This document shows positions 1 through 63,747 of a stretch of DNA of 64,000 nucleotides, piece after piece. The position numbers were made by a program, and so were the translations under genes. Position 1 is the first letter of the stretch; each line of letters starts with the position of its first letter. This DNA comes from a virus, in the IMG/VR virus record IMGVR_UViG_3300033562_000225, positions 1 to 64,000 of that record; one strand, written 5' to 3'. The notes below the pieces were generated by a model. That model was not told the DNA's origin. It did not search any database and worked only from the letters and a program-made list of their open reading frames with translations.

Positions 1-34
1 AGAGGCTTTTAAACCCAACAAATAAAAGACGATC

Positions 35-304
35 ATGCTAACATTGGACGAGAACTATAGTATCGACACAGACGATACTAACAATTGTACTCTTAAGTAT
101 TCCTGTAACACAGGTAAAGTACATGAGAAGTCAGGTAAGGAAATAGTAACTACTAACGAATGGTACTTCCCCAACATCAAGTTATGCCTACGGGAATACC
201 TACACCAATGTGTTAAGCCCAGCCAGTCGGCCAAGGATATGTTTACGGCCATAGATCGAGCAGAAAAAATAATTATCAACTTAAAACTTACCACACATGC
301 CTAA
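35..304 (+). CDS. hypothetical protein
   Basis: ORF track. Tiles with the following + strand ORFs (8-nt overlap with 297..668). No motif recognised. Confidence 0.45.
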   Translation: MLTLDENYSIDTDDTNNCTLKYSCNTGKVHEKSGKEIVTTNEWYFPNIKLCLREYLHQCVKPSQSAKDMFTAIDRAEKIIINLKLTTHA

Positions 305-668
305 AATGGATGTTATGCTATTAGAAGTCCTAACCCCCGAACAGTTATCTCACGTAAAGATTAAGGCTAAAGAAGTAGTGAAGAAGAATCTTACTTGGGC
401 AGGTCGAATCATACTCGCCTTAGGAGGTCAGTATTACGTTTTAGATTATACTAAAACAGGAGTACATATAGATGTACATGCTACTGTTAAGACTAGGACT
501 TGGCACCCCATAATCATTCTAGGGAGTATCATACAATTCTTTTTCTATATGTTAATAGACTTATGGGATAATATAATCAATTTATTTGGCCTATGTAACC
601 CTAAGCAATTTTCATACACTGAGAAGGTTACTTCTTTCATAGTTCGCAACAACCTCAAGAAAAAGTAA
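297..668 (+). CDS. hypothetical protein with hydrophobic C-terminal segment
   Basis: ORF track. Hydrophobic stretch HPIIILGSIIQFFFYMLIDLW. The stop overlaps the start of the next gene (668). Confidence 0.45.
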   Translation: MPKMDVMLLEVLTPEQLSHVKIKAKEVVKKNLTWAGRIILALGGQYYVLDYTKTGVHIDVHATVKTRTWHPIIILGSIIQFFFYMLIDLWDNIINLFGLCNPKQFSYTEKVTSFIVRNNLKKK

Positions 669-3100
669 TGAAGCAGGTAACAATAAAATCAGTAGGAATT
701 GAAGGGTTTGGGTCATACGTGGCCCCCTTCACTTTCAACATGGAACGCAAAGGAATCAATATCCTTAGGGCTAGCAACGGAACCGGTAAGACTACGGTAT
801 TCTCGGCTATGGTTTGGGCTTTATTCGGAGTAAACCTAAAAGGCGTTACTAAGGACAAAGTAAGCACTTGGAAGCATAAAAGACCGAAAGGCTTCCAAGG
901 CACCCGAGTTGTAGAGTACTTAAACATCGATGGGGCTGAAATCACCATTGCTCGACACATCAAGTACAAGGGACAAACCAACGGGATGACCGGAGGCGAT
1001 ACCTTAATGGTGGGGGCTAATGGTGATCTTATCTCCACCGGTAAAAGCATCGATGAAACTCAGGAACTAATCAACGAGTTAGTTGGATTGGATGGAAAAC
1101 TATTTCTCAACTCGGTTATGTTTGCCCAGCGTAGTAAGAAATTCATCAATGCATCCAACACCGAAAAGAGGGAAGTCCTAGAGCAGGTGTTCAACTTAGA
1201 TTGGGTTTCACAAGCAGCCGAGATAGCCAAGAAGGAGGGTTTAAGGATTCAAACAGATATCGACCTGCTGAATGCTCAGTATAGGCAGCAGGAAGGGCCT
1301 TATACGGCTGCTTTATCCGCTTACAACGTCAACAATGCTAACATCCAGCAGAACAAGCTACGTGTAGCCAACGAACTCCAGCAAATTACCTCAGATATTC
1401 AACAGGCTACTCAAGACCTAGAAGCCAAACGTTTGCTTCTAGCCTCTAATAACTCCGACCAAGTAAAGGTAGAAGTCGAAGAGTTGAAGAAGACTATCTT
1501 AACCATGGAGACTGATTTAGCCCATGCTAAGGAGGAGTTAACCCTTCTCCAAGTGGCCGAGCAAGGCTTGAACTCTACCCGCTCTATGCTTAACATGGCT
1601 GTGTCTAATACTGAACTAATACTCAACAGAAATAAGGAAACGCTAGGAAGGTCTCAGCAGGAATTAGCCGAAATACAGGCAGGTAAAGCAGAAGCCATTA
1701 AAGGGTACAAAGACAGTATAACCGGATGTCAGACTAGGGAGGCCGAGTTAAAGACTGCTTTAGATATGGTGAATGCTGAAAAGATTCCTGTAGAGTTCTC
1801 AACTGAGTTATGTAGGCAGCAATGCTCCAACTTGGACAGAGTGAAGCAGACTATAGAATCCGACTTAGCCTCTTATACGAAAGAGATTGAGAAACTAGAT
1901 CACAATCTAGCCCATATAACCGACCCTTGTAGTCATTGTGGGGCAATACCATTACCTGAGCAGATTGAAGGGCTTAAAGAGCGTATAAATGCTGCTAAAA
2001 AGACTTGGACAGATCTACAAGGACCTGCTGAACTCGCTAAACAATCGACCATAGACGAGCGGGAAGTTTGGGGCAATCACCTACAAGCAGCCTTACTTTA
2101 TGATGAGCAGGCTAAGCAGGTAGTAGAATTAGACATAAACATTACTACCTGTGCTTCTAATGCTACCATTTTTGAGCATGAATTACAGCAGTTAACCTCT
2201 GGCGTGCGTGAAATAGAACTAGGCAAAGACATAGAGAACCTACAGAACTCTATAAGCAGTCAAGAGAAGACTATTGCGGATGCTCAGGCTCAAATGACTC
2301 AACTAGCCATCCAATCCAAGCAGACTACTATTGACCAGTTAATAGCAAGCAACCGACTTACTGAGGCTACCTTATCAGGCTATAAATATCAATTGGAGCA
2401 AAAAAATATCACTCTTCTTAGTCTGGCTTCTGCTCTTTCTGATATTACCAACCTAGAAGGTAAGATTAAAGAGTTATGGTCCCGTGAGCATAGCCGTGAC
2501 GAGGAGCATGATGCCTTATGTACTATGGAGCAGGACCTAGGTAAAGAATACACTCGCCTACTTACCCTCTACAACGAACTAGGTCAGACTAAGGAACGCT
2601 TAACCGCATTAGAGACCGATAAAGACCGCTATAAATGGTGGCAAAGTGTCGGGTTCGGAACCTCTGGTATTAAGTCTTTAGTCTTCTCAGTTATGCTTAC
2701 CAGGCTAAATGAAGCAATGGCTATCTATTCACAGCGTCTAGGAGTGTCGGCTAGGTTCGTAGTTGATATGGATAAGGCTAGGAAGGACATCGAAGTAGAG
2801 GTACTGAAGGATGGCCATATTGTAGGGTATGATTGCTTATCCGGTGGGGAAGCCCAGCGCATCGACATTATCTCTCTATGCGGGATGCATGACCTAATCT
2901 CGGCCACCGATGTTATGTTAAACATTCTAGTATTGGATGAGGTATTTGAAGGGCTAGACGCGGAAGGTGTCGAAGCAGTATTCAATCTCATTGCATATAA
3001 GCAGCAGTCTACTCCTAACGTGTTTATCATCACCCATGCTCAGGAGTTGAGTGTAGTAAATGCCAATATAATCGACCTAGAGTATGAACTTCAAAACTAG
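668..3100 (+). CDS. SbcC/Rad50-family SMC-like recombination ATPase
   Basis: N-terminal Walker A (RASNGTGKTT). Long heptad-like central region with a CxxC zinc-hook-like motif (DPCSHCG). C-terminal ABC signature (LSGGEAQR), Walker B (ILVLDEVFEGLD) and H-loop (FIITHA). Confidence 0.85.
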   Translation: MKQVTIKSVGIEGFGSYVAPFTFNMERKGINILRASNGTGKTTVFSAMVWALFGVNLKGVTKDKVSTWKHKRPKGFQGTRVVEYLNIDGAEITIARHIKYKGQTNGMTGGDTLMVGANGDLISTGKSIDETQELINELVGLDGKLFLNSVMFAQRSKKFINASNTEKREVLEQVFNLDWVSQAAEIAKKEGLRIQTDIDLLNAQYRQQEGPYTAALSAYNVNNANIQQNKLRVANELQQITSDIQQATQDLEAKRLLLASNNSDQVKVEVEELKKTILTMETDLAHAKEELTLLQVAEQGLNSTRSMLNMAVSNTELILNRNKETLGRSQQELAEIQAGKAEAIKGYKDSITGCQTREAELKTALDMVNAEKIPVEFSTELCRQQCSNLDRVKQTIESDLASYTKEIEKLDHNLAHITDPCSHCGAIPLPEQIEGLKERINAAKKTWTDLQGPAELAKQSTIDEREVWGNHLQAALLYDEQAKQVVELDINITTCASNATIFEHELQQLTSGVREIELGKDIENLQNSISSQEKTIADAQAQMTQLAIQSKQTTIDQLIASNRLTEATLSGYKYQLEQKNITLLSLASALSDITNLEGKIKELWSREHSRDEEHDALCTMEQDLGKEYTRLLTLYNELGQTKERLTALETDKDRYKWWQSVGFGTSGIKSLVFSVMLTRLNEAMAIYSQRLGVSARFVVDMDKARKDIEVEVLKDGHIVGYDCLSGGEAQRIDIISLCGMHDLISATDVMLNILVLDEVFEGLDAEGVEAVFNLIAYKQQSTPNVFIITHAQELSVVNANIIDLEYELQN

Positions 3101-19553: not shown

Positions 19554-19841
19554 TTATTCGGTTAAAATAGTCAATCTAAGCATCATTTTAGCCTCTATAA
19601 GCGGGTCCCTTTCTAATCTAGTCCTACGATAATTCATTCGCATTATCTTATCTAAATTGGGTATGTGTGACACATATAGAGTATCTTCAACTAAGCCTAG
19701 TAATCTGTATTTATGCTTTCCTACTCTCACCACTGGTTTATAAGGAACGTAGGCAGCAACTAAGGCTAAATAGGTTTCCTTACATTCGGGTAGTAAAATA
19801 TCTTTCGGCATATCAGTATGATTGAATACAAATGTAAACAC
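19554..19841 (-). CDS. hypothetical protein
   Basis: ORF track. The track start is a GTG. ATG at 19811 (MPKDILLPE) is more likely. Confidence 0.45.
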   Translation of the reverse strand: MFTFVFNHTDMPKDILLPECKETYLALVAAYVPYKPVVRVGKHKYRLLGLVEDTLYVSHIPNLDKIMRMNYRRTRLERDPLIEAKMMLRLTILTE

Positions 19842-20599: not shown

Positions 20600-20631
20600 C
20601 AAATCTAATGATAAGTAAGTTACCCACCAAA
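20600..20631 (-). promoter_or_regulatory. Bacteroidota-type promoter (TTTG-N20-TAGATTTG)
   Basis: The plus strand shows caaatcta (20600-20607) and caaa (20628-20631) with a 20-nt spacer. It points into 20304..20579. Confidence 0.6.
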
Positions 20632-26145: not shown

Positions 26146-29100
26146 TTATCTTTGTTTAGCGGTTAATACTGGTTTGCCTGCCTTGAAGTCAAGTTCAATG
26201 TAGCAGTTATTATCTATGGCGTTTTGGGTTATTACTAATTCACTGTCTATCAAAGCAACCTTATCCAATAACTCTTGTTCTTCTTGAGTTATAACATTCT
26301 TTATTGAAATAACTCCATCGACAATTGCAAAATCATTTAAGTTTAAATTGCCTCTTGTTATATGGTGAACAGTATTTTCGGGTAAATCTCCTACTTTTTG
26401 TGACTCTACATGTCCGTCAGCAGCAGTTTTAATCTCCCACACGCCACCTAATTCATCTTCTGTATAAAGACTACTTATAGGTTCATCGGAGGATGTACCT
26501 GATACAGTTTCTGTGTACTCCACATCAATCGTAATAGGTCTGTCTCCTCCATGTGACATTGCTACATAGACATCATTGGAGGTGCTACAAGTACCCATTG
26601 CAACTAGAATAGTTCCAGGCGTAACGTCATACGTAAATGTTGGAGTTGTAACTTGAACAACGGTTGGATATTCAACATCTATACTATGAGTCGCTTCCGA
26701 CTGTGTGATTTTAGATAAATTATAACCACCTGATCCGTTAGATGTCGCCACAGCAAAATACACATGTGCTGTATGAGAAGGGTGCACAAAATGTGACTTC
26801 GGCCTTGTTAATGTCCAAGTAGAATCAATTTTAGCTTTCCCTGCTGACGCAAACTCCATAACGTGATAATTCAACCCGTTAATTTTAATGAGTTTTATAG
26901 CCGCGTCCCCGTAAACCCGTTTATTAATAGAGATTTGAGTTGGGTTTGTACCTAATGCAACACCTTGTATTTTGTCAGTGTCTGTAGTAGGAGGAAAGCC
27001 CCAAGTATATTGACCGTATCTAACAGAGCTAAATAAATATGAGTCTCCTAATCTAACTACAGGCTTAAGCATTGGCGCAACATCTGTAACCTTTGGAGTA
27101 AAACTTAATCCTTGGACATGCATCTTCATTGCATTTGCTACAGCATGGGGAACTACCAATACACCAAAGTTTATGGCTCTTTGAGGAACTACAAAATCTG
27201 CTGTTATAGTTCTAGGATTAAAGTCGCTCATATCCATTTGAATAAAATGAGCGTTTGCATTATCGAATGTCCACTGCGCATCGGTAGGAACAGGAATGAA
27301 ATTGTCTGGAATTGACCCTACAATACCCTTTGGTATTTCGTTAGCAATACCATTCCATGTGATAGGAATTATGTCAAGCGCAGAAAATACGTCCTTAAGA
27401 GTCAAGTTTACAGTTAGTATTAGATTGTCACCTTTAAACACTTCTGTTAACTCTGCATTTAACATTAAAGATATATAGGCATAAGATGGGGTGCTATCAT
27501 CTTTTGCAGTTATATTAAGCCCTGTAGGGTTCAGTTCAAAATATGCTTCTTTGTCTGCTGTTCCAATCTCGCAAAATCCCTGTCTGTTAAATACACCAGT
27601 AACACCAGTTCTAGGAATTACTCCGTTTAACTCTAATGAATATCCTGCTAAGGGCTGTCCTGCTGTTAATTCAAAAATCTCAAACGGCAGTACAAGATTA
27701 TATTGATTTCTTACTTCTTGTAGTGCTTCTCCTGTTTTATAATCTTGACTGACAAATTGCATCATTAAGCAAGTTCCCCCATCCACATCATCAGATACTT
27801 TTAAGTCATAATCTTGTCCAAATGAATGTTTAATGTAAAACTCAACATTCTTAATAATAAAATCTACTTCAAAGACTGAGAAGAAATCGAGATAATACAA
27901 CTTTTCATTAGCAAGATAAGACCTTGTTCTGCTTATAGTTTCTCCGTATGAGCCTAACAACGTTGCTTTTGTAGTAACGTCTCTCAATCCAATTTCTATA
28001 AATCCATCCCTCGGTGCAAAGCTTGCAAAGGCCATCCTACCGTAACAGATAAGTGGCGCTTTTGGGAAGCCTGTATATAACCCAGCAGGTCTTTTAATTT
28101 GTATCTCATCGCCAGTTAGTGCTAGGGCTTTACCTTCGTACACCTCTTTTGTAAAATCTTTTACATCCGCGTGATAAGCTGTACCATCAAAATCTTTTAG
28201 ATAGGTTATAGCCCTACCCCTCAAAAACAATCCCTCTGGCTTACTAAAGTCAAATACATTATCAACCGATATTTCAGCAATTTGTTCTGCGTCGTTAAAT
28301 GTAAATCTAACAGGATAGGCAACTTCAATCCTATTAATTAGTTTTTCTTGCTCATCTTTATTAGCAATCCCAATTTGTGTAGTTATTTCCACAGTAGTGG
28401 CATCACCCGCTGCTTGGTCTACTAGGCCTTTTAGAACTTTAATGTTTCGTATCTTGGGCAGCTTATCATTAATGCCTGCAACTGAAATATAAGGTACTAC
28501 AGAAACTTTATTTAATTCTCCAGGTTGTCGAGTTACATCTGAATCTACAAAAGAAATTTCTGTTATGTTTGGAAAAGTTTCAAGGTTTCCACCAACAGAA
28601 AGAGTAGGATTTGCGACAGATGCCTTTAGTTGTACGCTTACTCTAATATTACCAATAGGTACTGGTGTAGGACTTACGAAGTAAACAGTTGTAGTTCCAA
28701 ATAACTTAGAATAAGTTGCTTCTACGTTAACGTTATTTACAACTATATGATTTATTCTATTTGATAAAACCATAGGCATTCTTATCACTATATATGCAGG
28801 AGGGGCTAAAACAACATTGAAAAATAATTCTTGTTCAATTCCTCCTGTTGCCATTATCCAACTATCATTAGTTGGTTCTACATTAGACCCGGAATGCCCT
28901 ATTGAATAATACTCCCTTATGAAGCCATCATTTTTAAGTTGGTCGTAAGTATGTAGCTCGTCTTTAAACTCGTTTTGAATCTCACTGAATAAATGTAGTC
29001 TATCCTTTAGTTGAGCTTGTATTTCTGGAATAGTATTAAGCTGACCAGTTAAGTTAGATTTAACTAAGTCCATTAAATCTTTAATACTATTTGGTAATAG

Positions 29101-29736
29101 TCCATTATAAATAGTAATCCAATTAGTATCTGTTTTCTTAACCATTAAATAAACCTCTGATGGGTCAATTACGTATGCATCAGTTTTACCATTCAATGTA
29201 GTTCCTGCTGGAACTGTAAGAGTTAAGAGATTTGTTTTATCAGAATTTCTAAGTGTAAATACAGCGCCCTCTTTGTCACTTGTAGGAACAGCTATACTCA
29301 TAAGAGCATCATCTAAACCTGTAATATTTACATAGTAAGCCTTAAACGGGCCCCCAGTAAACGCAGGAGCTTTTTTGCCTCTATAACTAAACGTAGGTAA
29401 TTGGCTGGCACTAATATCAGTTTTAAGTCTTTCTATTTCTGTTTTAGTATCCTCAAGGACTTTTGAATCAGTTACCTTCTCAGCTAATTTAACTAAATCA
29501 ACATCAGCCAAATCTTGTTGTAGGAGCCCTGCTCGTACTCCTTGCTTTAAGAAATCGCTGTCGTCTATAGAGGCCCCATCAGCCCAATATTGCAAATCAG
29601 CCCATCGGGTTACCCCGTCACCCACTTTAAACTTACGGGTATCAGTCTCTAGCCCCACTACTCTATCGCCTAGGATGGGGTTTATCGAAGTCCAATCAGC
29701 GAGCGTATCGCCTTTCAGTTTTATAGTATCTGCCAT
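26146..29736 (-). CDS. large tail fibre/spike protein (1196 aa)
   Basis: The N-terminus LKGDTLADWTSINPILGDRVVGLETDTRKFKVGDGVTRWADLQYW matches the HylP/Mtd_N-type fibre N-terminal domain pattern (NP.L..GE.G.ETDT...K.GDG...W..L.Y). Confidence 0.7.
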   Translation of the reverse strand: MADTIKLKGDTLADWTSINPILGDRVVGLETDTRKFKVGDGVTRWADLQYWADGASIDDSDFLKQGVRAGLLQQDLADVDLVKLAEKVTDSKVLEDTKTEIERLKTDISASQLPTFSYRGKKAPAFTGGPFKAYYVNITGLDDALMSIAVPTSDKEGAVFTLRNSDKTNLLTLTVPAGTTLNGKTDAYVIDPSEVYLMVKKTDTNWITIYNGLLPNSIKDLMDLVKSNLTGQLNTIPEIQAQLKDRLHLFSEIQNEFKDELHTYDQLKNDGFIREYYSIGHSGSNVEPTNDSWIMATGGIEQELFFNVVLAPPAYIVIRMPMVLSNRINHIVVNNVNVEATYSKLFGTTTVYFVSPTPVPIGNIRVSVQLKASVANPTLSVGGNLETFPNITEISFVDSDVTRQPGELNKVSVVPYISVAGINDKLPKIRNIKVLKGLVDQAAGDATTVEITTQIGIANKDEQEKLINRIEVAYPVRFTFNDAEQIAEISVDNVFDFSKPEGLFLRGRAITYLKDFDGTAYHADVKDFTKEVYEGKALALTGDEIQIKRPAGLYTGFPKAPLICYGRMAFASFAPRDGFIEIGLRDVTTKATLLGSYGETISRTRSYLANEKLYYLDFFSVFEVDFIIKNVEFYIKHSFGQDYDLKVSDDVDGGTCLMMQFVSQDYKTGEALQEVRNQYNLVLPFEIFELTAGQPLAGYSLELNGVIPRTGVTGVFNRQGFCEIGTADKEAYFELNPTGLNITAKDDSTPSYAYISLMLNAELTEVFKGDNLILTVNLTLKDVFSALDIIPITWNGIANEIPKGIVGSIPDNFIPVPTDAQWTFDNANAHFIQMDMSDFNPRTITADFVVPQRAINFGVLVVPHAVANAMKMHVQGLSFTPKVTDVAPMLKPVVRLGDSYLFSSVRYGQYTWGFPPTTDTDKIQGVALGTNPTQISINKRVYGDAAIKLIKINGLNYHVMEFASAGKAKIDSTWTLTRPKSHFVHPSHTAHVYFAVATSNGSGGYNLSKITQSEATHSIDVEYPTVVQVTTPTFTYDVTPGTILVAMGTCSTSNDVYVAMSHGGDRPITIDVEYTETVSGTSSDEPISSLYTEDELGGVWEIKTAADGHVESQKVGDLPENTVHHITRGNLNLNDFAIVDGVISIKNVITQEEQELLDKVALIDSELVITQNAIDNNCYIELDFKAGKPVLTAKQR

Positions 29737-34780: not shown

Positions 34781-34786
34781 TAGGAC

Positions 34787-34862
34787 AATTCTCAGACATG
34801 TTCCCCCGAATTACTGAAAATTACTAAACCCCGATGTATCGTTACATCGGGGTTTTCTTTTT
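34787..34862 (+). ncRNA. candidate ~70-nt small RNA / mini-ORF transcript
   Basis: Bounded by the promoter at 34750-34780 and a strong terminator at 34829-34862. Contains only a 9-codon ORF (34798-34827, MFPRITENY). Confidence 0.35.
34829..34862 (+). terminator. intrinsic terminator
   Basis: 10-bp perfect stem ccccgatgta (34829-34838) / tacatcgggg (34843-34852), 4-nt loop, then TTTTCTTTTT. Confidence 0.8.
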
Positions 34863-34878
34863 AAATATTGTTAATTTA

Positions 34879-34910
34879 TTTGGTTTTACTGTTTACTTGA
34901 AGTATGTTTG
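34879..34910 (+). promoter_or_regulatory. Bacteroidota-type promoter (TTTG-N20-TATGTTTG) of the plus-strand operon
   Basis: TTTG at 34879-34882 and TATGTTTG at 34903-34910, with a 20-nt spacer. Confidence 0.6.
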
Positions 34911-34917
34911 CAGGACC

Positions 34918-35020
34918 GAGTACTAGCGGTATAAACGTATTGGGTTACCAAGTTTTTACTGGTGAACCTTGAAGGTCGATAGGATGGTCTAGTACCCATT
35001 CTTTCGACCTTTTAAATTTT
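34918..35020 (+). promoter_or_regulatory. structured 5' leader RNA, copy A (hairpin whose loop pairs with the transcript 5' end)
   Basis: Hairpin 34972-35011 (about 15 bp, 8-nt loop tctagtac) followed by TTAAATTTT. Loop nt 34989-34995 are complementary to 34920-34926. The architecture is duplicated at 63327-63411 with compensatory changes. Confidence 0.55.
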
Positions 35021-35042
35021 ATTCACTCTTCATTCAAACAAC

Positions 35043-35735
35043 ATGACTGAATTTTTAGCAAACACAAAAGAGACCATGTCCAGCATGGACATCGCAGAGT
35101 TAACAGGTAAGCAGCATTCACACGTGTTACGGGACATCAAAGTACTATTAGATCAAGGTGTAGCCGAATCCAATTTTGGACTGGGTTCATACTCAGACGC
35201 TAACGGGCAGTCTAGGACTATGTATAATCTTACTAAGAAGGGTTGTTTAATCCTTGCTTCTGGATACGATGCAGTCCTCCGAGAAAAGATTATTGACCGT
35301 TGGGAAGTGTTGGAGACTAAGGAGACTGCTGCCCTTCCTAGCACCTATTTGGATGCCCTTAAATCGCTTGTTATTGCCGAAGAGCAGAAAGCCTTACTAT
35401 CACTTGAACTAGAGCAGCAGCGGCCTAAGATTGAATTTTATGATACGGTGACCGGTTCTTCTGATACCATCGACATGGCTAGTGTAGCCAAGGTACTGGA
35501 TATGGGGATAGGCCGTAACAATCTATTTGAACTGTTACGTAAAGAAAATATCCTTAGACGTAACAATGAGCCTTACCAGACTTATGTTGATAGAGGGTTT
35601 TTCCGTCAGATAGAAAGTAAGTTTACAATGGCCGATGGCAGCATACGAATCAGCATAAAAACTGTAGTGTATCAGAAGGGTGTGAGTATGATTAGGGAAT
35701 TACTCACTAAGAAAGGTTTCAAACCCGCTAAATAA
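35043..35735 (+). CDS. Rha-family regulator with KilAC/antirepressor C-terminal domain
   Basis: The N-terminus MSSMDIAELTGKQHSHVLRDI is Rha-like. The C-terminus PKIEFYDTVTGSSDTIDMASVAKVLDMGIGRNNLFELLRKENILRRNNEPYQTYVDRGFF is KilAC/ANT-like. Confidence 0.7.
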   Translation: MTEFLANTKETMSSMDIAELTGKQHSHVLRDIKVLLDQGVAESNFGLGSYSDANGQSRTMYNLTKKGCLILASGYDAVLREKIIDRWEVLETKETAALPSTYLDALKSLVIAEEQKALLSLELEQQRPKIEFYDTVTGSSDTIDMASVAKVLDMGIGRNNLFELLRKENILRRNNEPYQTYVDRGFFRQIESKFTMADGSIRISIKTVVYQKGVSMIRELLTKKGFKPAK

Positions 35736-60300: not shown

Positions 60301-61369
60301 TTTTAACAAATCAGTTATATCTCTGTCGGATGACGTTGTAGGTACTAGATTCTTTGTAGGCAAGTTCCGACGTGAGTATGAAAAACTTGCTGGTGAGAAA
60401 TTCGATAATGAAAAATTCAATACTGATGAAAATTATCGTTTTGATAATGAGCAAAATATTAAGCAAGCAGCAGCCGAAGCCTCTTTCCATACTAACCTAA
60501 TGACCAATACAGCTAACTCCCTTGAAGGCATTCAAGCATTAAAGGTTAGGGGCACCTCCGGAGCCCAAGTATTCCGGGATATAAACAATACCCTCTCCGG
60601 ATTCTCCAGGCACGAAGCGGCTGTTATGACCACCTCCCTACGGTCATTAACTGGTAATGGGTCGTTGTCTGCTCAACAGGCCTGGGCTCTATTTGCCTCG
60701 GTTACCACTAGGAATATTGTTTACAATACCGTGCTAGAGTTTGGGGCTCGTGCAGCATGGGCCGGAGTAGATGATGATTATTCTGTATCAAATGCTGTTT
60801 ATGACGTGTTTGGCAAAGACCAATTAGCCAGGCAAGTTGCAGGGGCTTGGCTACAGATTGGGATAGGGTCACGAGGGAACTTACTTCGTATGCCTCTACA
60901 GTTTGGGTTAAGCAAAGCCAACCAGTATGTAACTGAGCATTGGCTAGGTCAAGAGTTCGATCCTGAAAAACATAAATTAGGTATGGAAGGCCCTGACATA
61001 GTTAACGCTACTAGCAGCCTATACAATGCGGCTAGACAATTAGGTCCTTATCAAATGCCAGTTAACCTAGCCATAGAAGGGGCCAAACTAACTAAGACTC
61101 TTGCCACCTCTTCTGATGAGCAAGCAGAAAACGAGAAGTGGTCGGCTCTAAACTCTATGATTTGGTCTACACAAAAGACTTTACTTCCTCTGCCTTTCCA
61201 ACGTGATATGGAAGGCGTTATGAAGCAAAGCATGGATGCTATGGAGGCTACAGGAGACCTTAAAGGTATATTTGAGGAGGGTAGAATATCTAAAGCATTT
61301 GTTGGAGCCAAGAGAACTGAACAGATTCAGCAGCAGATGGAGGAAGCCAAACTTCGTAATAAGGAGTAG
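54338..61369 (+). CDS. giant virion protein (2343 aa), ejection/internal core protein candidate
   Basis: An uninterrupted 7-kb ORF. Gly/Ala-rich hydrophobic stretches lie near aa 330-560 and a long K/E/A-rich charged region in the middle. It is the last structural gene before the lysis cassette. Confidence 0.6.
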   Translation: MPILNKLFGEYKNYLGQGGTKAAGFPQTYEEYSKTMSSGDLQAIYRYAKERYTNGVPKTYADFLSTVDDELPKGVSQRLTHHAIQAAGRQLGVTPRETPTARQATESLKTQGALLTEMPVEQDIETPTGAPRVDTQISTGLVGVDPTGQLPKPTITTGLDDVLPKVSVPEEGSFAPAPASVPSPTLRQPTAAGTMVTRKGEPTTAEDGDPTILGRAGAATARGGATTLDAVGGFFEVITNPAYYASEAVEKYSEVVGPVIEDLTSAVGIGDTAIGKAIGVVAKGAPSVASTFKKEEYGGDRYASFTGNRAYVESLVGTQTMSDLSIKNPNIKAALVGVEQLSGMALDLALLVGTRNLTSAEPLLTKFSLGAEELFYKFAPKAISTVPKAVGKIFGEAVTTPTAIRSLQVDWIQPFKEFAKSDFAVFLGAKESALTMQDSDASTLASIGEGIKAFGMGYSNGLFFEKIGLTPVKLASSIAVKTGTPIAGLATNMIGAGGVGFGADMLLQAGEQVEAGEKVDPDYYRSIAAGVAFAGGTVLHGRNIIANTRAGIRAKQWSNLMEMENKTIDYCLNNAYDAPTLNAKIDDMMTKRDAVVTRLERTISTSGKPDAALERTLMGIDAQTSAYRQVLLTQSFTKEIIQNPDKFRNEILDNPNLKAEVKDKLCQRIDAIVQEFDPINVESRRLQTTINDWQFAKTQLDPNDPMTAKKSGIYDKQIAKAEDRMAELSVAPTYYYKGEFYDTHGALIDALNKRYVDGTSSEVIVRNDPQASKLVNESLNQLLDRKFNEGVKVQQTQEIAKAESQPERDLAITQAQERLKLPTEPELMVSDQAVAALDRALAGESADVAKVQNASDQLYAETKRLEKMKDVDGRQYTIEQIETAQRQAFEDVAFAENYIQAKKAGETIDVKALREEAKATAEDAINDIRERRQILLPESVKAKLNAPKPETVPAETVAKVEPVKPVEDAKRDESTLVRPEGEQVPPEGVSDSNLPKPDKTKLLDRPTAEKEVTTWEELPSSDYVVLGPEGKPMVAGKERRAAIAREERSVRDKMLSDYRQANETRLQEYRAQVAEERLTEWKKENPQATETEVDTQRKKISEESATATLARAGAGLTDADVLLGARLATSYLREGVKKSADLFKEVSDNLRGALGLEITKQDFKRMMATEIPEIGQAPKEAVKTLFGEAAKSTVKRQIEEITGIRRKPEVAVLDNLKEARARYKEQEKVASDALKIGVKEGKLEMKEAAFDKQGYRDQLNQWVSDNKKEIQQVNPELTPAILRAVNNVNSWYTLDRGLKQIKKAISDKTYADNLITQDKLFKQVEKNLSHEGKSKFGTAQGEVADFLRIDPSSLPTELRGKYDTLLESMAAKATEVPYDPFQLKQFLDNAKVHVDEGYAAYRAKLVDKAVAKELAAKDVDKKMTANEREVAKRDIYSTLAKTAIEGLKFKKGKVTTGEKLINEVTQYSKEELMRLPSSTLSRLPFMVDKMAVGVVPSRLYQDVLRPVRSYKAADTIMKAFGMKLRPVLEELDSKIGAVREQLEVDMQGKGLSWFQQMRLKDALLNKPRYLLDSIFKGAKGSRTFYDNILSNSAFSKTRAEADATRAKISATNLWGKAYRAREKVGDNRFDSGFISTLYSKALEYESNKGLKGAHSPQDYFSQLVDYRKSYGVYTEQNTIRMRELWNKMQDANGDVTAASIKKLMLPEETAAVDYMRKWYDSEGIEKTREAEVMYRGGALDTYENYSHNFVVNGNNMVDPAAFVEQIFGGTPASNMSVRSATTHARSGQTGVISIDPIATFNRAVDSTYYDYHMTPAIQEALGAFKVMSDMATDKSFRDSLLMIENAYKGDITIAFENTMRQTTNMDKIMNAMGGAFYSGALSSIRRIPQEFLSNLSSAIIYDPVSFYEGSRAIMDHQTAKAAESTSMSSGYEPLFDFAGVTNRFRRNVEDAQRLFNDTNMAGSTIRTGKWDRTIDTITNNKVKNTFDTFNKSVISLSDDVVGTRFFVGKFRREYEKLAGEKFDNEKFNTDENYRFDNEQNIKQAAAEASFHTNLMTNTANSLEGIQALKVRGTSGAQVFRDINNTLSGFSRHEAAVMTTSLRSLTGNGSLSAQQAWALFASVTTRNIVYNTVLEFGARAAWAGVDDDYSVSNAVYDVFGKDQLARQVAGAWLQIGIGSRGNLLRMPLQFGLSKANQYVTEHWLGQEFDPEKHKLGMEGPDIVNATSSLYNAARQLGPYQMPVNLAIEGAKLTKTLATSSDEQAENEKWSALNSMIWSTQKTLLPLPFQRDMEGVMKQSMDAMEATGDLKGIFEEGRISKAFVGAKRTEQIQQQMEEAKLRNKE

Positions 61370-63001: not shown

Positions 63002-63042
63002 AACCCATAATATTTGTGTGGTAAATAATTTATACTTAGATT

Positions 63043-63071
63043 TGCCCTTACAATAACGTAAGGGCATTTTT
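63043..63071 (+). terminator. intrinsic terminator ending the late operon
   Basis: 9-bp stem tgcccttac (63043-63051) / gtaagggca (63058-63066), 6-nt loop, then TTTTT. Confidence 0.8.
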
Positions 63072-63267: not shown

Positions 63268-63287
63268 AGGTAAAATACGTTAAAGGA

Positions 63288-63319
63288 TTTGTACGTGTCA
63301 GAACATTATAATATGTTTG
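63288..63319 (+). promoter_or_regulatory. Bacteroidota-type promoter (TTTG-N20-TATGTTTG)
   Basis: TTTG at 63288-63291 and TATGTTTG at 63312-63319, with a 20-nt spacer. The -7 octamer is identical to the one at 34903-34910. Confidence 0.6.
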
Positions 63320-63326
63320 TACAGCA

Positions 63327-63411
63327 AGGTGAGAGTTGCACAAAAGTATTGGTGTAAAAACCTTAAAGGTCGTTTGGAGTGTCTCTCACCACTTCACTCG
63401 ACCTTTTCAAT
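63327..63411 (+). promoter_or_regulatory. structured 5' leader RNA, copy B
   Basis: Hairpin 63365-63406 (8 bp outer stem, 2x2 internal loop, 7 bp inner stem, 8-nt loop tctctcac) followed by TTTTCAATTT. The loop plus one nt (63383-63390) is complementary to 63328-63335. Confidence 0.55.
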
Positions 63412-63441
63412 TTATTGGACTAGATTATTAAACTCATTGTC

Positions 63442-63747
63442 ATGGAGAATTTTGCTACGATTAGGATGGAACTAGACTTACAAGCACAACGTGTTATTCA
63501 TCAATACATGGTGGATAATGCTAAAATATCAGAAGAAGTAACCAGAGGTATTAAAGAGGCCTTTGATTCTTTTGATATTGCTGAGGCTATTAGAAAAGAA
63601 GTTTCCCACTGCTTACAAGAAGCTGTACGTGGGTCAGGTAATTGGAGTACCTTACGGGCCACTATACAGAAAAAAATGGATATAGTGGTTGAAGAGCATA
63701 TTGAGAAAACCTTAGAGTCTCTTAAAGAGTCTTTAAAGACTCTTTAA
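63442..63747 (+). CDS. hypothetical protein
   Basis: ORF track. First gene after leader copy B. Confidence 0.5.
   Translation: MENFATIRMELDLQAQRVIHQYMVDNAKISEEVTRGIKEAFDSFDIAEAIRKEVSHCLQEAVRGSGNWSTLRATIQKKMDIVVEEHIEKTLESLKESLKTL

Follow-up and report, generated by a model that had tools for sequence, protein, structure and literature searches.

We analyzed a 64,000-nucleotide (nt) stretch of viral DNA (IMG/VR record IMGVR_UViG_3300033562_000225, positions 1 to 64,000; hereafter, the window), which is part of a 78.8-kb metagenomic contig, and focused on a leader element at positions 63288–63441 (copy B) and its paralogue at 34879–35042 (copy A). Copy B had been described as a leader RNA heading the unit that follows the lysis genes. 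The analyses of its sequence and predicted folding supported its description as a promoter-proximal, non-coding, structured leader of the + strand.

The first gene after copy B encodes a 101-aa orphan protein and is followed, beyond the window, by genes for a DnaB-like helicase, a primase, a ResIII helicase, and DNA polymerase A. The gene block into which copy B had been proposed to gate entry is the DNA-replication operon, and such gating would be a natural and anatomically sound reading of its position. Copy B had also been placed immediately after the terminator of the lysis operon (63043–63071). It does lie downstream of this terminator, but an open reading frame (ORF) of 58–60 aa (63085/63091–63267) is located between them. 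Copy A precedes an antirepressor-type gene, after which come the terminase and structural genes. The phage host is predicted to belong to the Bacteroidetes, and no integrase or repressor was found among approximately 45 proteins scanned. The features of the two leaders and the genes that they precede are as follows.

63279–63283, + strand: GTTAA block of copy B, 9 nt 5′ of the −33 TTTG, defined by the A/B alignment from two examples only
63288–63319, + strand: Bacteroidetes-type promoter of copy B (TTTG at 63288–63291, 20 nt, TATGTTTG at 63312–63319)
63324–63339, + strand: 5′ mini-hairpin of copy B, GCAA[GGUGAGAG]UUGC, with a 4-bp stem and 8-nt loop 1 (63328–63335)
63342–63352, + strand: conserved single-stranded spacer block of copy B, AAAAGUAUUGG (copy A: AAACGUAUUGG), from the A/B alignment
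63360–63370, + strand: palindrome ACCTTAAAGGT at the hairpin foot of copy B (copy A: ACCTTGAAGGT); third exact copy at 61257–61267
63365–63406, + strand: terminator-like hairpin of copy B, 42 nt, with loop 2 UCUCUCAC at 63382–63389
63404–63419, + strand: U-rich tract UUUUCAAUUUAUUGGA of copy B, 3′ of the hairpin
63442–63747, + strand: first gene after copy B, 101-aa orphan protein
34879–35042, + strand: copy A leader, paralogue of copy B
34870–34874, + strand: GTTAA block of copy A, with the same spacing to TTTG as in copy B
34879–34910, + strand: promoter of copy A (TTTG, 20 nt, TATGTTTG)
34915–34930, + strand: 5′ mini-hairpin of copy A, ACCG[AGUACUAG]CGGU, −3.2 kcal/mol
34971–35012, + strand: terminator-like hairpin of copy A, −21.9 kcal/mol, with loop 2 UCUAGUAC at 34988–34995 and UUUUAAAUUUUAUU after the stem
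35043–35735, + strand: antirepressor-type gene after copy A (Rha N-terminal plus ANT/KilAC; Pfam PF09669 and PF03374; PHROG 63)

Architecture and covariation of the two leaders

The promoter of copy B was present as originally placed, and its full pattern occurred only at copies A and B in the 64 kb, with 0.08 occurrences expected. The Bacteroidetes promoter consensus is that attributed to Bayley (2000) and Chen (2007) in PMC2864571. The GTTAA block is a candidate upstream promoter element or factor-binding site. Exact matches to two further blocks, AACCTTRAAGGTCG and TCGACCTTTTMAATTT, were likewise found only at copies A and B.

The leader of copy B contains two hairpins separated by a spacer of 25 nt (40 nt in copy A). 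The mini-hairpin begins approximately 4 nt past the −7 box, near the predicted +1, and has a folding energy of −2.0 kcal/mol when taken alone. The segment ggtgagag, which had been regarded as a free 5′ strand, was present at 63328–63335 (GGTGAGAG) but constitutes loop 1 of this 4-bp hairpin. The spacer block noted earlier was found at 63342–63352 (AAAAGTATTGG) and is a candidate processing or factor-binding site. The second hairpin folded as claimed, with an 8-bp outer stem (63365–63372/63399–63406), a 2 × 2 internal loop, a 7-bp inner stem with a single G-U pair (63375–63381/63390–63396), and an 8-nt loop. Its energy alone was −19.6 kcal/mol, and RNA folding placed the hairpin in both the minimum-energy and the centroid structures of both copies. 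A simple terminator scan did not flag the copy B hairpin because of the internal loop. The tail was T-rich from 63404 onward, as had been reported, and the ATG at 63442 lies 35 nt past the stem; the corresponding distance in copy A is 30 nt. The sequences following the hairpins are UUUUCAAUUU in copy B and UUUUAAAUUUU in copy A, and the UUUUCAAUUUAUUGGA tract is the probable 3′ end of a short leader RNA. The distances between stem and ATG are too short for a second promoter, and expression of the operons from these promoters therefore needs read-through of the hairpins.

The complementarity between the 5′ segment and the loop of the large hairpin was confirmed, with the difference that both partners are hairpin loops rather than a free strand and a loop. 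Positions 63383–63389 of loop 2 pair with 63335–63329 of loop 1 over 7 bp, with a possible extra pair between G63328 and C63390. Given that a 4-bp hairpin presents the 5′ segment in its loop, this long-range pairing would be a loop–loop (kissing) contact. The equivalent contact of copy A joins 34989–34995 in loop 2 with 34926–34920 in loop 1, and the register was the same in both copies, with positions 2–8 of loop 1 facing positions 2–8 of loop 2.

Alignment of the two copies, which were 76–78% identical across promoter and leader, substantiated the compensated pairing that had been reported between them. All 26 proposed pairs in the three helices were standard pairs in both copies, and none was broken. 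Nine of these pairs were altered on both sides, three in each helix, including three of the four pairs in the mini-hairpin stem. This result was matched by only one of 500 shuffles, and only zero to one compensated pairs remained when the partners were slid by 1–3 columns. G-U pairs were located at alignment columns 73/90 in both copies and 61/102 in copy A, which favors an RNA of the + strand as the paired molecule. Within the kissing helix, A and B diverged at the three central positions, and they also diverged in the inner stem; shared by both were the outer stem, AAAMGUAUUGG, the ACCUUNAAGGU palindrome, and, 5′ of the promoter, the GTTAA block. The cognate loop duplexes had energies of −13.4 kcal/mol (B) and −8.6 kcal/mol (A), values reached by 0.02% and 0.36% of random 10-mers from the window, respectively. 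Cross duplexes between A and B reached just −3.6 and −3.7 kcal/mol, and the two copies are thus orthogonal in predicted pairing. As judged from sequence, the leader structure shared by the two copies is more than chance.

Other assignments were tried and rejected. Searches of the whole window against Rfam 15 at the gathering threshold and permissive scans around A and B returned only chance matches to microRNAs, small nucleolar RNAs, long non-coding RNAs, and unrelated small RNAs, and a riboswitch or another curated cis-regulatory RNA was rejected for want of a curated Rfam match. A leader peptide was discarded, as the leader has no ORF starting with ATG, and so was an antiterminator helix, as the 5′ complementarity ends at the loop and does not reach the stem arms. 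An alternative hairpin presenting GUAUUGG (UUGCAC/GUGUAA in B and GGUA/UACC in A) was out of register in the A/B alignment, and the pairing of ACCUU with the 5′ AAGGU of copy B, which appeared in the minimum-energy structure, was absent in copy A. An invertible promoter and a tRNA-like gene were also considered and rejected. The search for distant targets of the loops gave nothing above chance.

Further features were observed around the two leaders. A promoter-like site on the + strand at 63013–63044 (TTTG, 20 nt, TTAGATTTG) partly coincides with the 5′ arm of the hairpin that terminates the lysis operon and lies ahead of the ORF of 58–60 aa; the same unusual −7 variant, TTAGATTTG, also heads a − strand gene at 20600–20631. 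Directly 5′ of the copy A promoter, the region 34781–34868 (+ strand) contains a −7-like box, TATATTTG, followed approximately 40 nt later by a hairpin, AAACCCCGAUGUA[UCGU]UACAUCGGGGUUU, with a U-run (−25 kcal/mol, z = −5.6). This element may represent a small RNA unit of its own, or it may serve as an insulator or a bidirectional terminator. The third exact copy of ACCTTAAAGGT, at 61257–61267, lies within the 3′ end of a 2343-aa ORF, abuts a TATATTTG box, and is located approximately 160 nt ahead of the first lysis gene; it might be a shared operator or occur by chance. Elsewhere in the window, a 1196-aa protein encoded on the − strand (26146–29736) showed an N-terminal similarity to Mtd_N (major tropism determinant) that fell just short of the threshold (26.2 bits; cut-off, 26.3), a possible sign of a receptor-binding protein that is the target of a diversity-generating retroelement.

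Leaders of the same design in other phages

A covariance model built from A and B was run on the window, on a further 10 kb of flanking sequence, and on loci carrying terminase and Ant relatives, and it matched these two copies only. When IMG/VR, GTDB genomes, and JGI metagenomes were scanned with sequence patterns, the only matches were in coding sequences and Neisseria terminators, at chance level. The only other contigs with the element were 100% identical and came from sample SRR21758068, and thus offered no population variation.

The design itself recurred in unrelated sequences. Antirepressor homologues with 61% identity, encoded in gut-phage contigs of approximately 80 kb, are preceded by a leader (G) whose sequence is unrelated to A and B. 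Its layout comprises a −7 box, GUCA[ACCACCAC]UGAC, a spacer, a hairpin with GUGGUGG as part of its loop, a U-tract, and an ATG 8 nt further on. In the alignment of the G family, from which results were used for the kissing helix and the 5′ stem only, the kissing helix was paired in all eight distinct sequences, and compensation was apparent between CCACCAC/GUGGUGG and a variant with CCACAAC/GUUGUGG, the terminator stem of which is completely different.

We then defined a strict architecture scan. A −7 box had to be followed within 45 nt by a segment of at least 7 nt enclosed by a stem of 4 bp or more, and the exact complement of this segment had to lie in a hairpin that had a stem of 6 bp or more and a T-rich tail. 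Random anchors satisfied these criteria in 0.37% of cases, which corresponds to 0.22 expected hits among the 61 −7 boxes of the window; two were found, namely A and B. Looser architecture criteria were satisfied at approximately 3% of random anchors. The strict scan of the fetched Bacteroides-type phage loci identified further leader families K, M, N, P, and Q, together with a weaker family O. Families K, P, and Q have the constant loop tail CACAAUAG in common, and the specificity parts of their loops differ, each being matched by its own 5′ loop.

These kissing leaders were positioned 5′ of rha, ant, bro-N, or kilA-N genes, sometimes with two or three in one array, and adjoined leaders with the complete a1b1-c4-a2b2 arrangement of the c4 antisense RNA of phages, one of which, at L060, corresponds to Rfam c4-2. 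No Rfam model matched the kissing leaders, and permissive Rfam scans around eight related leaders gave no match other than the one at L060. In each of nine leaders of the design, the loop-1 sequence did not recur before or at the next gene. A full-text literature search retrieved no description of such leaders in Bacteroides phages. The element seems to belong to a wider, unannotated class of leaders found in Bacteroidota phages.

The loci of these relatives showed additional features. Bacteroides-type prophage contigs (L023 at 1–3000, as well as L012 and L014) carry arrays of two or three rha/bro/kilA/ant genes, each with its own structured leader; these leaders include kissing types N and M and a c4-type leader with a1b1 and a2b2. 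Non-coding gaps of 150–450 nt separate some kissing leaders from the next gene (L174 at 760–1200, L014 at approximately 1360–1680, and L012/L049 downstream of leader M). The gaps of M type contain a sequence resembling a tRNA T-arm, GGTTCGATCCC, in which ARAGORN detected no tRNA and Rfam gave no match; it may be a processing signal or another RNA. Leaders 5′ of ant homologues in L003, L005, L012, L015, L017, and L038 showed a clear c4 layout, with a1/b1 at +4 to +30, a′/b′ in the closing stem followed by a U-run, and a2/b2 repeats downstream. None of these c4-layout leaders was detected by Rfam even at E ≤ 1, suggesting that the c4 clan models under-cover Bacteroidales phages.

A putative kissing-loop attenuator and competing explanations

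We propose that copy B acts as an operon-specific RNA attenuator, the terminated leader of which would act in trans on the 5′ hairpin of nascent transcripts, and give this proposal a little less than an even chance. Transcription would start at the base of the 4-bp hairpin carrying loop 1, and most transcripts would end at the terminator-like hairpin, yielding a short RNA of approximately 85–95 nt that is possibly trimmed further. Loop 2 of this short RNA would kiss loop 1 on nascent transcripts from the same promoter. On an unbound nascent chain, loop 1 may capture the emerging loop-2 segment in cis before the 3′ arm of the terminator exists, and this capture would slow terminator closure and permit read-through. 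Once the short RNA has accumulated, it would occupy loop 1 in trans, such that the terminator would fold freely and transcription would stop. The outcome would be operon-specific negative feedback or immunity, with the central three loop nucleotides as the code. The blocks identical in A and B (the outer stem, ACCUUNAAGGU, AAAMGUAUUGG, and GTTAA) might serve a shared factor or processing step. Action in trans is argued from the diversification of the loops on constant scaffolds, both between A and B and among K, P, and Q; this pattern is expected for distinct specificities, whereas a purely internal contact would not need diversified loops.

Several points weigh against the attenuator proposal. 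Regarding the leader structure of A and B as solid, we infer the mechanism, and its functional part, from sequence throughout. Kissing could promote termination, which would reverse the sign of the regulation. The A/B sequence family has two members in one genome, and its covariation is a single comparison. In a fully self-kissed short RNA, both loops would be occupied, and trans action would need processing or breathing. The U-tract is only moderate, consisting of four U residues, then CAA/AAA, and then a U-rich sequence. Finally, immunity may be the wrong frame, given that no integrase or repressor was found among the proteins tested.

The competing explanations differ in which of these features they accommodate. 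It is unlikely, in our estimate, that the structure has a purely internal role, in which the kiss would compact the 5′ untranslated region (UTR) or the short leader, or protect it against 5′-end-dependent and endonucleolytic decay, and the hairpin would be a constitutive leaky terminator or insulator. The mini-hairpin does begin at approximately +1, the classic site of a stabilizing 5′ stem-loop, both loops are in one molecule, with a 25–40-nt tether long enough for an internal kiss, and no second target was found downstream. However, an internal role leaves unexplained why the same scaffolds carry different, mutually non-pairing loops (A/B; K, P, and Q) and why the leaders are consistently linked to ant/bro/kilA genes and c4-type leaders. 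Slightly less probable again is that read-through is set by a protein or another factor acting on the blocks identical in A and B, such as Q-, N-, or put-like antitermination or an RNA- or DNA-binding regulator, with loop pairing being secondary. The distribution of differences would suit this account, since GTTAA, AAAMGUAUUGG, ACCTTNAAGGT, and the outer stem are identical or nearly identical in A and B and the inner stem and loops differ; ACCTTNAAGGT is moreover a perfect DNA palindrome with a third exact copy at 61257–61267. The order of promoter, short leader, and terminator also resembles that of lambda PR′-tR′. Nevertheless, a factor of this kind was not identified, and the other kissing-leader families lack both the palindrome and the spacer blocks, loop pairing being the sole feature common to all. 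The three compensated positions of the kissing helix are also left unexplained. Control by a factor can coexist with the attenuator as a second input.

Chance complementarity or a DNA-level feature, such as an inverted repeat for a recombinase or a replication or packaging signal, seems to us scarcely credible. The segments are short (7–8 nt), and the looser criteria were satisfied at approximately 3% of random anchors, as described above; against this stand the in-register compensation in three helices, the correctly oriented consensus promoter, and the independent families with the same design. Moreover, in a DNA cruciform or on the opposite strand, the G-U pairs would be replaced by C-A mismatches. 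In both length and spacing, the repeats fall short of what the invertible promoters of Bacteroides would need. A classical c4-type antisense RNA acting in trans on an a2-like target elsewhere (another phage transcript, a competing phage, or the host), with the 5′ copy as a decoy as proposed for a1/b1 in P1, ranks above chance and is still quite improbable. The precedent is that the a1/b1 sites of c4 have been proposed as competitors (supplement to Weinberg, 2010), and one match of 10–11 nt to the copy B loop and stem was located on the sense strand of the ORF at 19554–19841. This match, GTGGTGAGAG(T) at 19720–19730 (sense of the − strand), is complementary to the loop and the 3′ stem and was not clearly above chance. 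In contrast, no a2-like copy was present within 150 nt downstream, where the best duplex with loop 2 equaled the median of random windows, none of the nine leaders of the design had a second target, and genome-wide matches of 7–11 nt occurred at chance frequency, none of them at a gene start.

Extending the attenuator proposal beyond copy B is more tentative, and we consider it possible, with doubt prevailing, that Bacteroidota phages contain a widespread class of self-contained kissing-loop attenuators. A loop code of 7–9 nt would define each member, and the released short RNA, acting on the 5′-terminal hairpin, would set the rate of read-through. Such leaders would provide orthogonal control of operons within a phage and heteroimmunity between phages, with neither a downstream target nor a dedicated protein.

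To our knowledge, there has been hardly any work on how phages of gut and environmental Bacteroidota are regulated. If the proposal is true, compact RNA-only switches would govern the two most consequential phage decisions, namely replication and the expression of the antirepressor together with late genes. Their specificity would be readable from sequence, so that groups of immunity and cross-regulation could be predicted from metagenomes, and the ant/bro/kilA arrays with one leader per gene would be explained. The leaders would also offer small orthogonal terminator switches for Bacteroides engineering. If the loops are purely structural, the result would be a modest annotation of 5′ UTR structure.

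Comparison with known leader and antisense RNA systems

Copies A and B resemble intrinsic terminators and attenuators in that a stable hairpin and a U-tract separate the promoter from the first gene and no further promoter intervenes; they differ in that the conserved partner of the terminator is its loop rather than its stem. Recognition between loops is typical of plasmid countertranscript systems (pT181 and pIP501, ColE1 RNA I/II, and R1 CopA/CopT), in which fully complementary hairpin loops of 6–8 nt are used and a few bases set specificity. In pT181, binding to the nascent leader decides terminator formation, and the target is a replication function. The same decision on a nascent leader is described for RnaG and icsA in the abstract of the RnaG study. 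The leaders share with these systems the coupling of loop–loop recognition to a terminator and, in copy B, the replication target. The regulator is transcribed from the opposite strand in countertranscript systems, whereas both partners reside in the sense transcript here; no Bacteroidetes-type antisense promoter was found on the − strand at either copy, and a weak sigma-70-like match at 63301–63272 points away.

A short leader RNA with its own terminator that acts in trans on a read-through isoform from the same promoter is known from IsrK of the Gifsy-1 prophage, which controls downstream phage regulators and activates translation by remodelling the long transcript (PMC4825925). IsrK differs from the copy A/B element in that no loop–loop pair occurs within its leader, and the two have no sequence similarity.

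The closest relationships were found with the antisense RNAs of P1/P7 and P4. According to the supplement to Weinberg (2010) and to PMC8546580, c4 is transcribed from the strand that also encodes its target and is processed by RNase P into a stable antisense RNA of approximately 77 nt, which represses Ant synthesis. Two of its segments, a′ and b′, pair both with a2 and b2, located ahead of ant, and with a1 and b1, which precede c4 and are contained in a two-hairpin motif (c4-a1b1) (Weinberg, 2010, supplement). The likeness of the A/B leaders to the c4 clan (C4 RF01695, c4-2 RF02944, and the c4-a1b1 motif) extends to several features. The antisense element and its target come from the same strand and the same promoter, the target copy is upstream of the antisense domain in a small hairpin motif, with compensated changes between loop 1 and loop 2, and the antisense domain ends in a stem able to double as a terminator. 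Copy A precedes an antirepressor gene (Rha, ANT/KilAC), and leaders of the design share phage gene arrays with true c4-type leaders. Copy B differs in preceding the orphan and then the replication genes, not ant. Membership in the clan nevertheless fails on three features: a model match, two antisense segments, and a downstream target. The Rfam c4 clan (CL00128) gave no match at the gathering threshold in the window and none at E ≤ 10 around B or A, and the positive control, L060 at 2901–2976, scored 45.1 bits against c4-2. Each copy has one antisense segment (loop 2) instead of a′ and b′, in a hairpin of 42 nt instead of a multi-stem RNA of approximately 77 nt. Because loop 2 has no a2/b2-like partner in the 150 nt downstream, a stretch that includes the start of the regulated gene, these leaders cannot work by repressing translation of that gene.

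The CI RNA of P4 has two pairing sites within its own leader, seqA on the upstream side and seqC on the downstream side, and the pairing terminates transcription of the replication genes (PMC4825925). As in P4, the antisense element of copy B is encoded in the untranslated leader of its own operon with a complementary site upstream, corresponding to seqA, and the controlled operon encodes replication functions, with the terminator-like hairpin located before the helicase, primase, and polymerase genes. In contrast to P4, there is no downstream equivalent of seqC and no sequence or model similarity, the pairing is just a 7-bp loop–loop contact, and the host is of the Bacteroidetes instead of the enterobacteria.

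By analogy, copy A, before ant, and copy B, before the replication genes, would mirror P1 and P4, respectively. The design is best filed as the leader-encoded antisense principle of c4 and CI cut down to one loop and one upstream target in the form of kissing hairpins. If the attenuator proposal is true, this principle works without the downstream target that has been thought central to it. The leader class seems new to databases, and its concept has precedents in c4 and CI.

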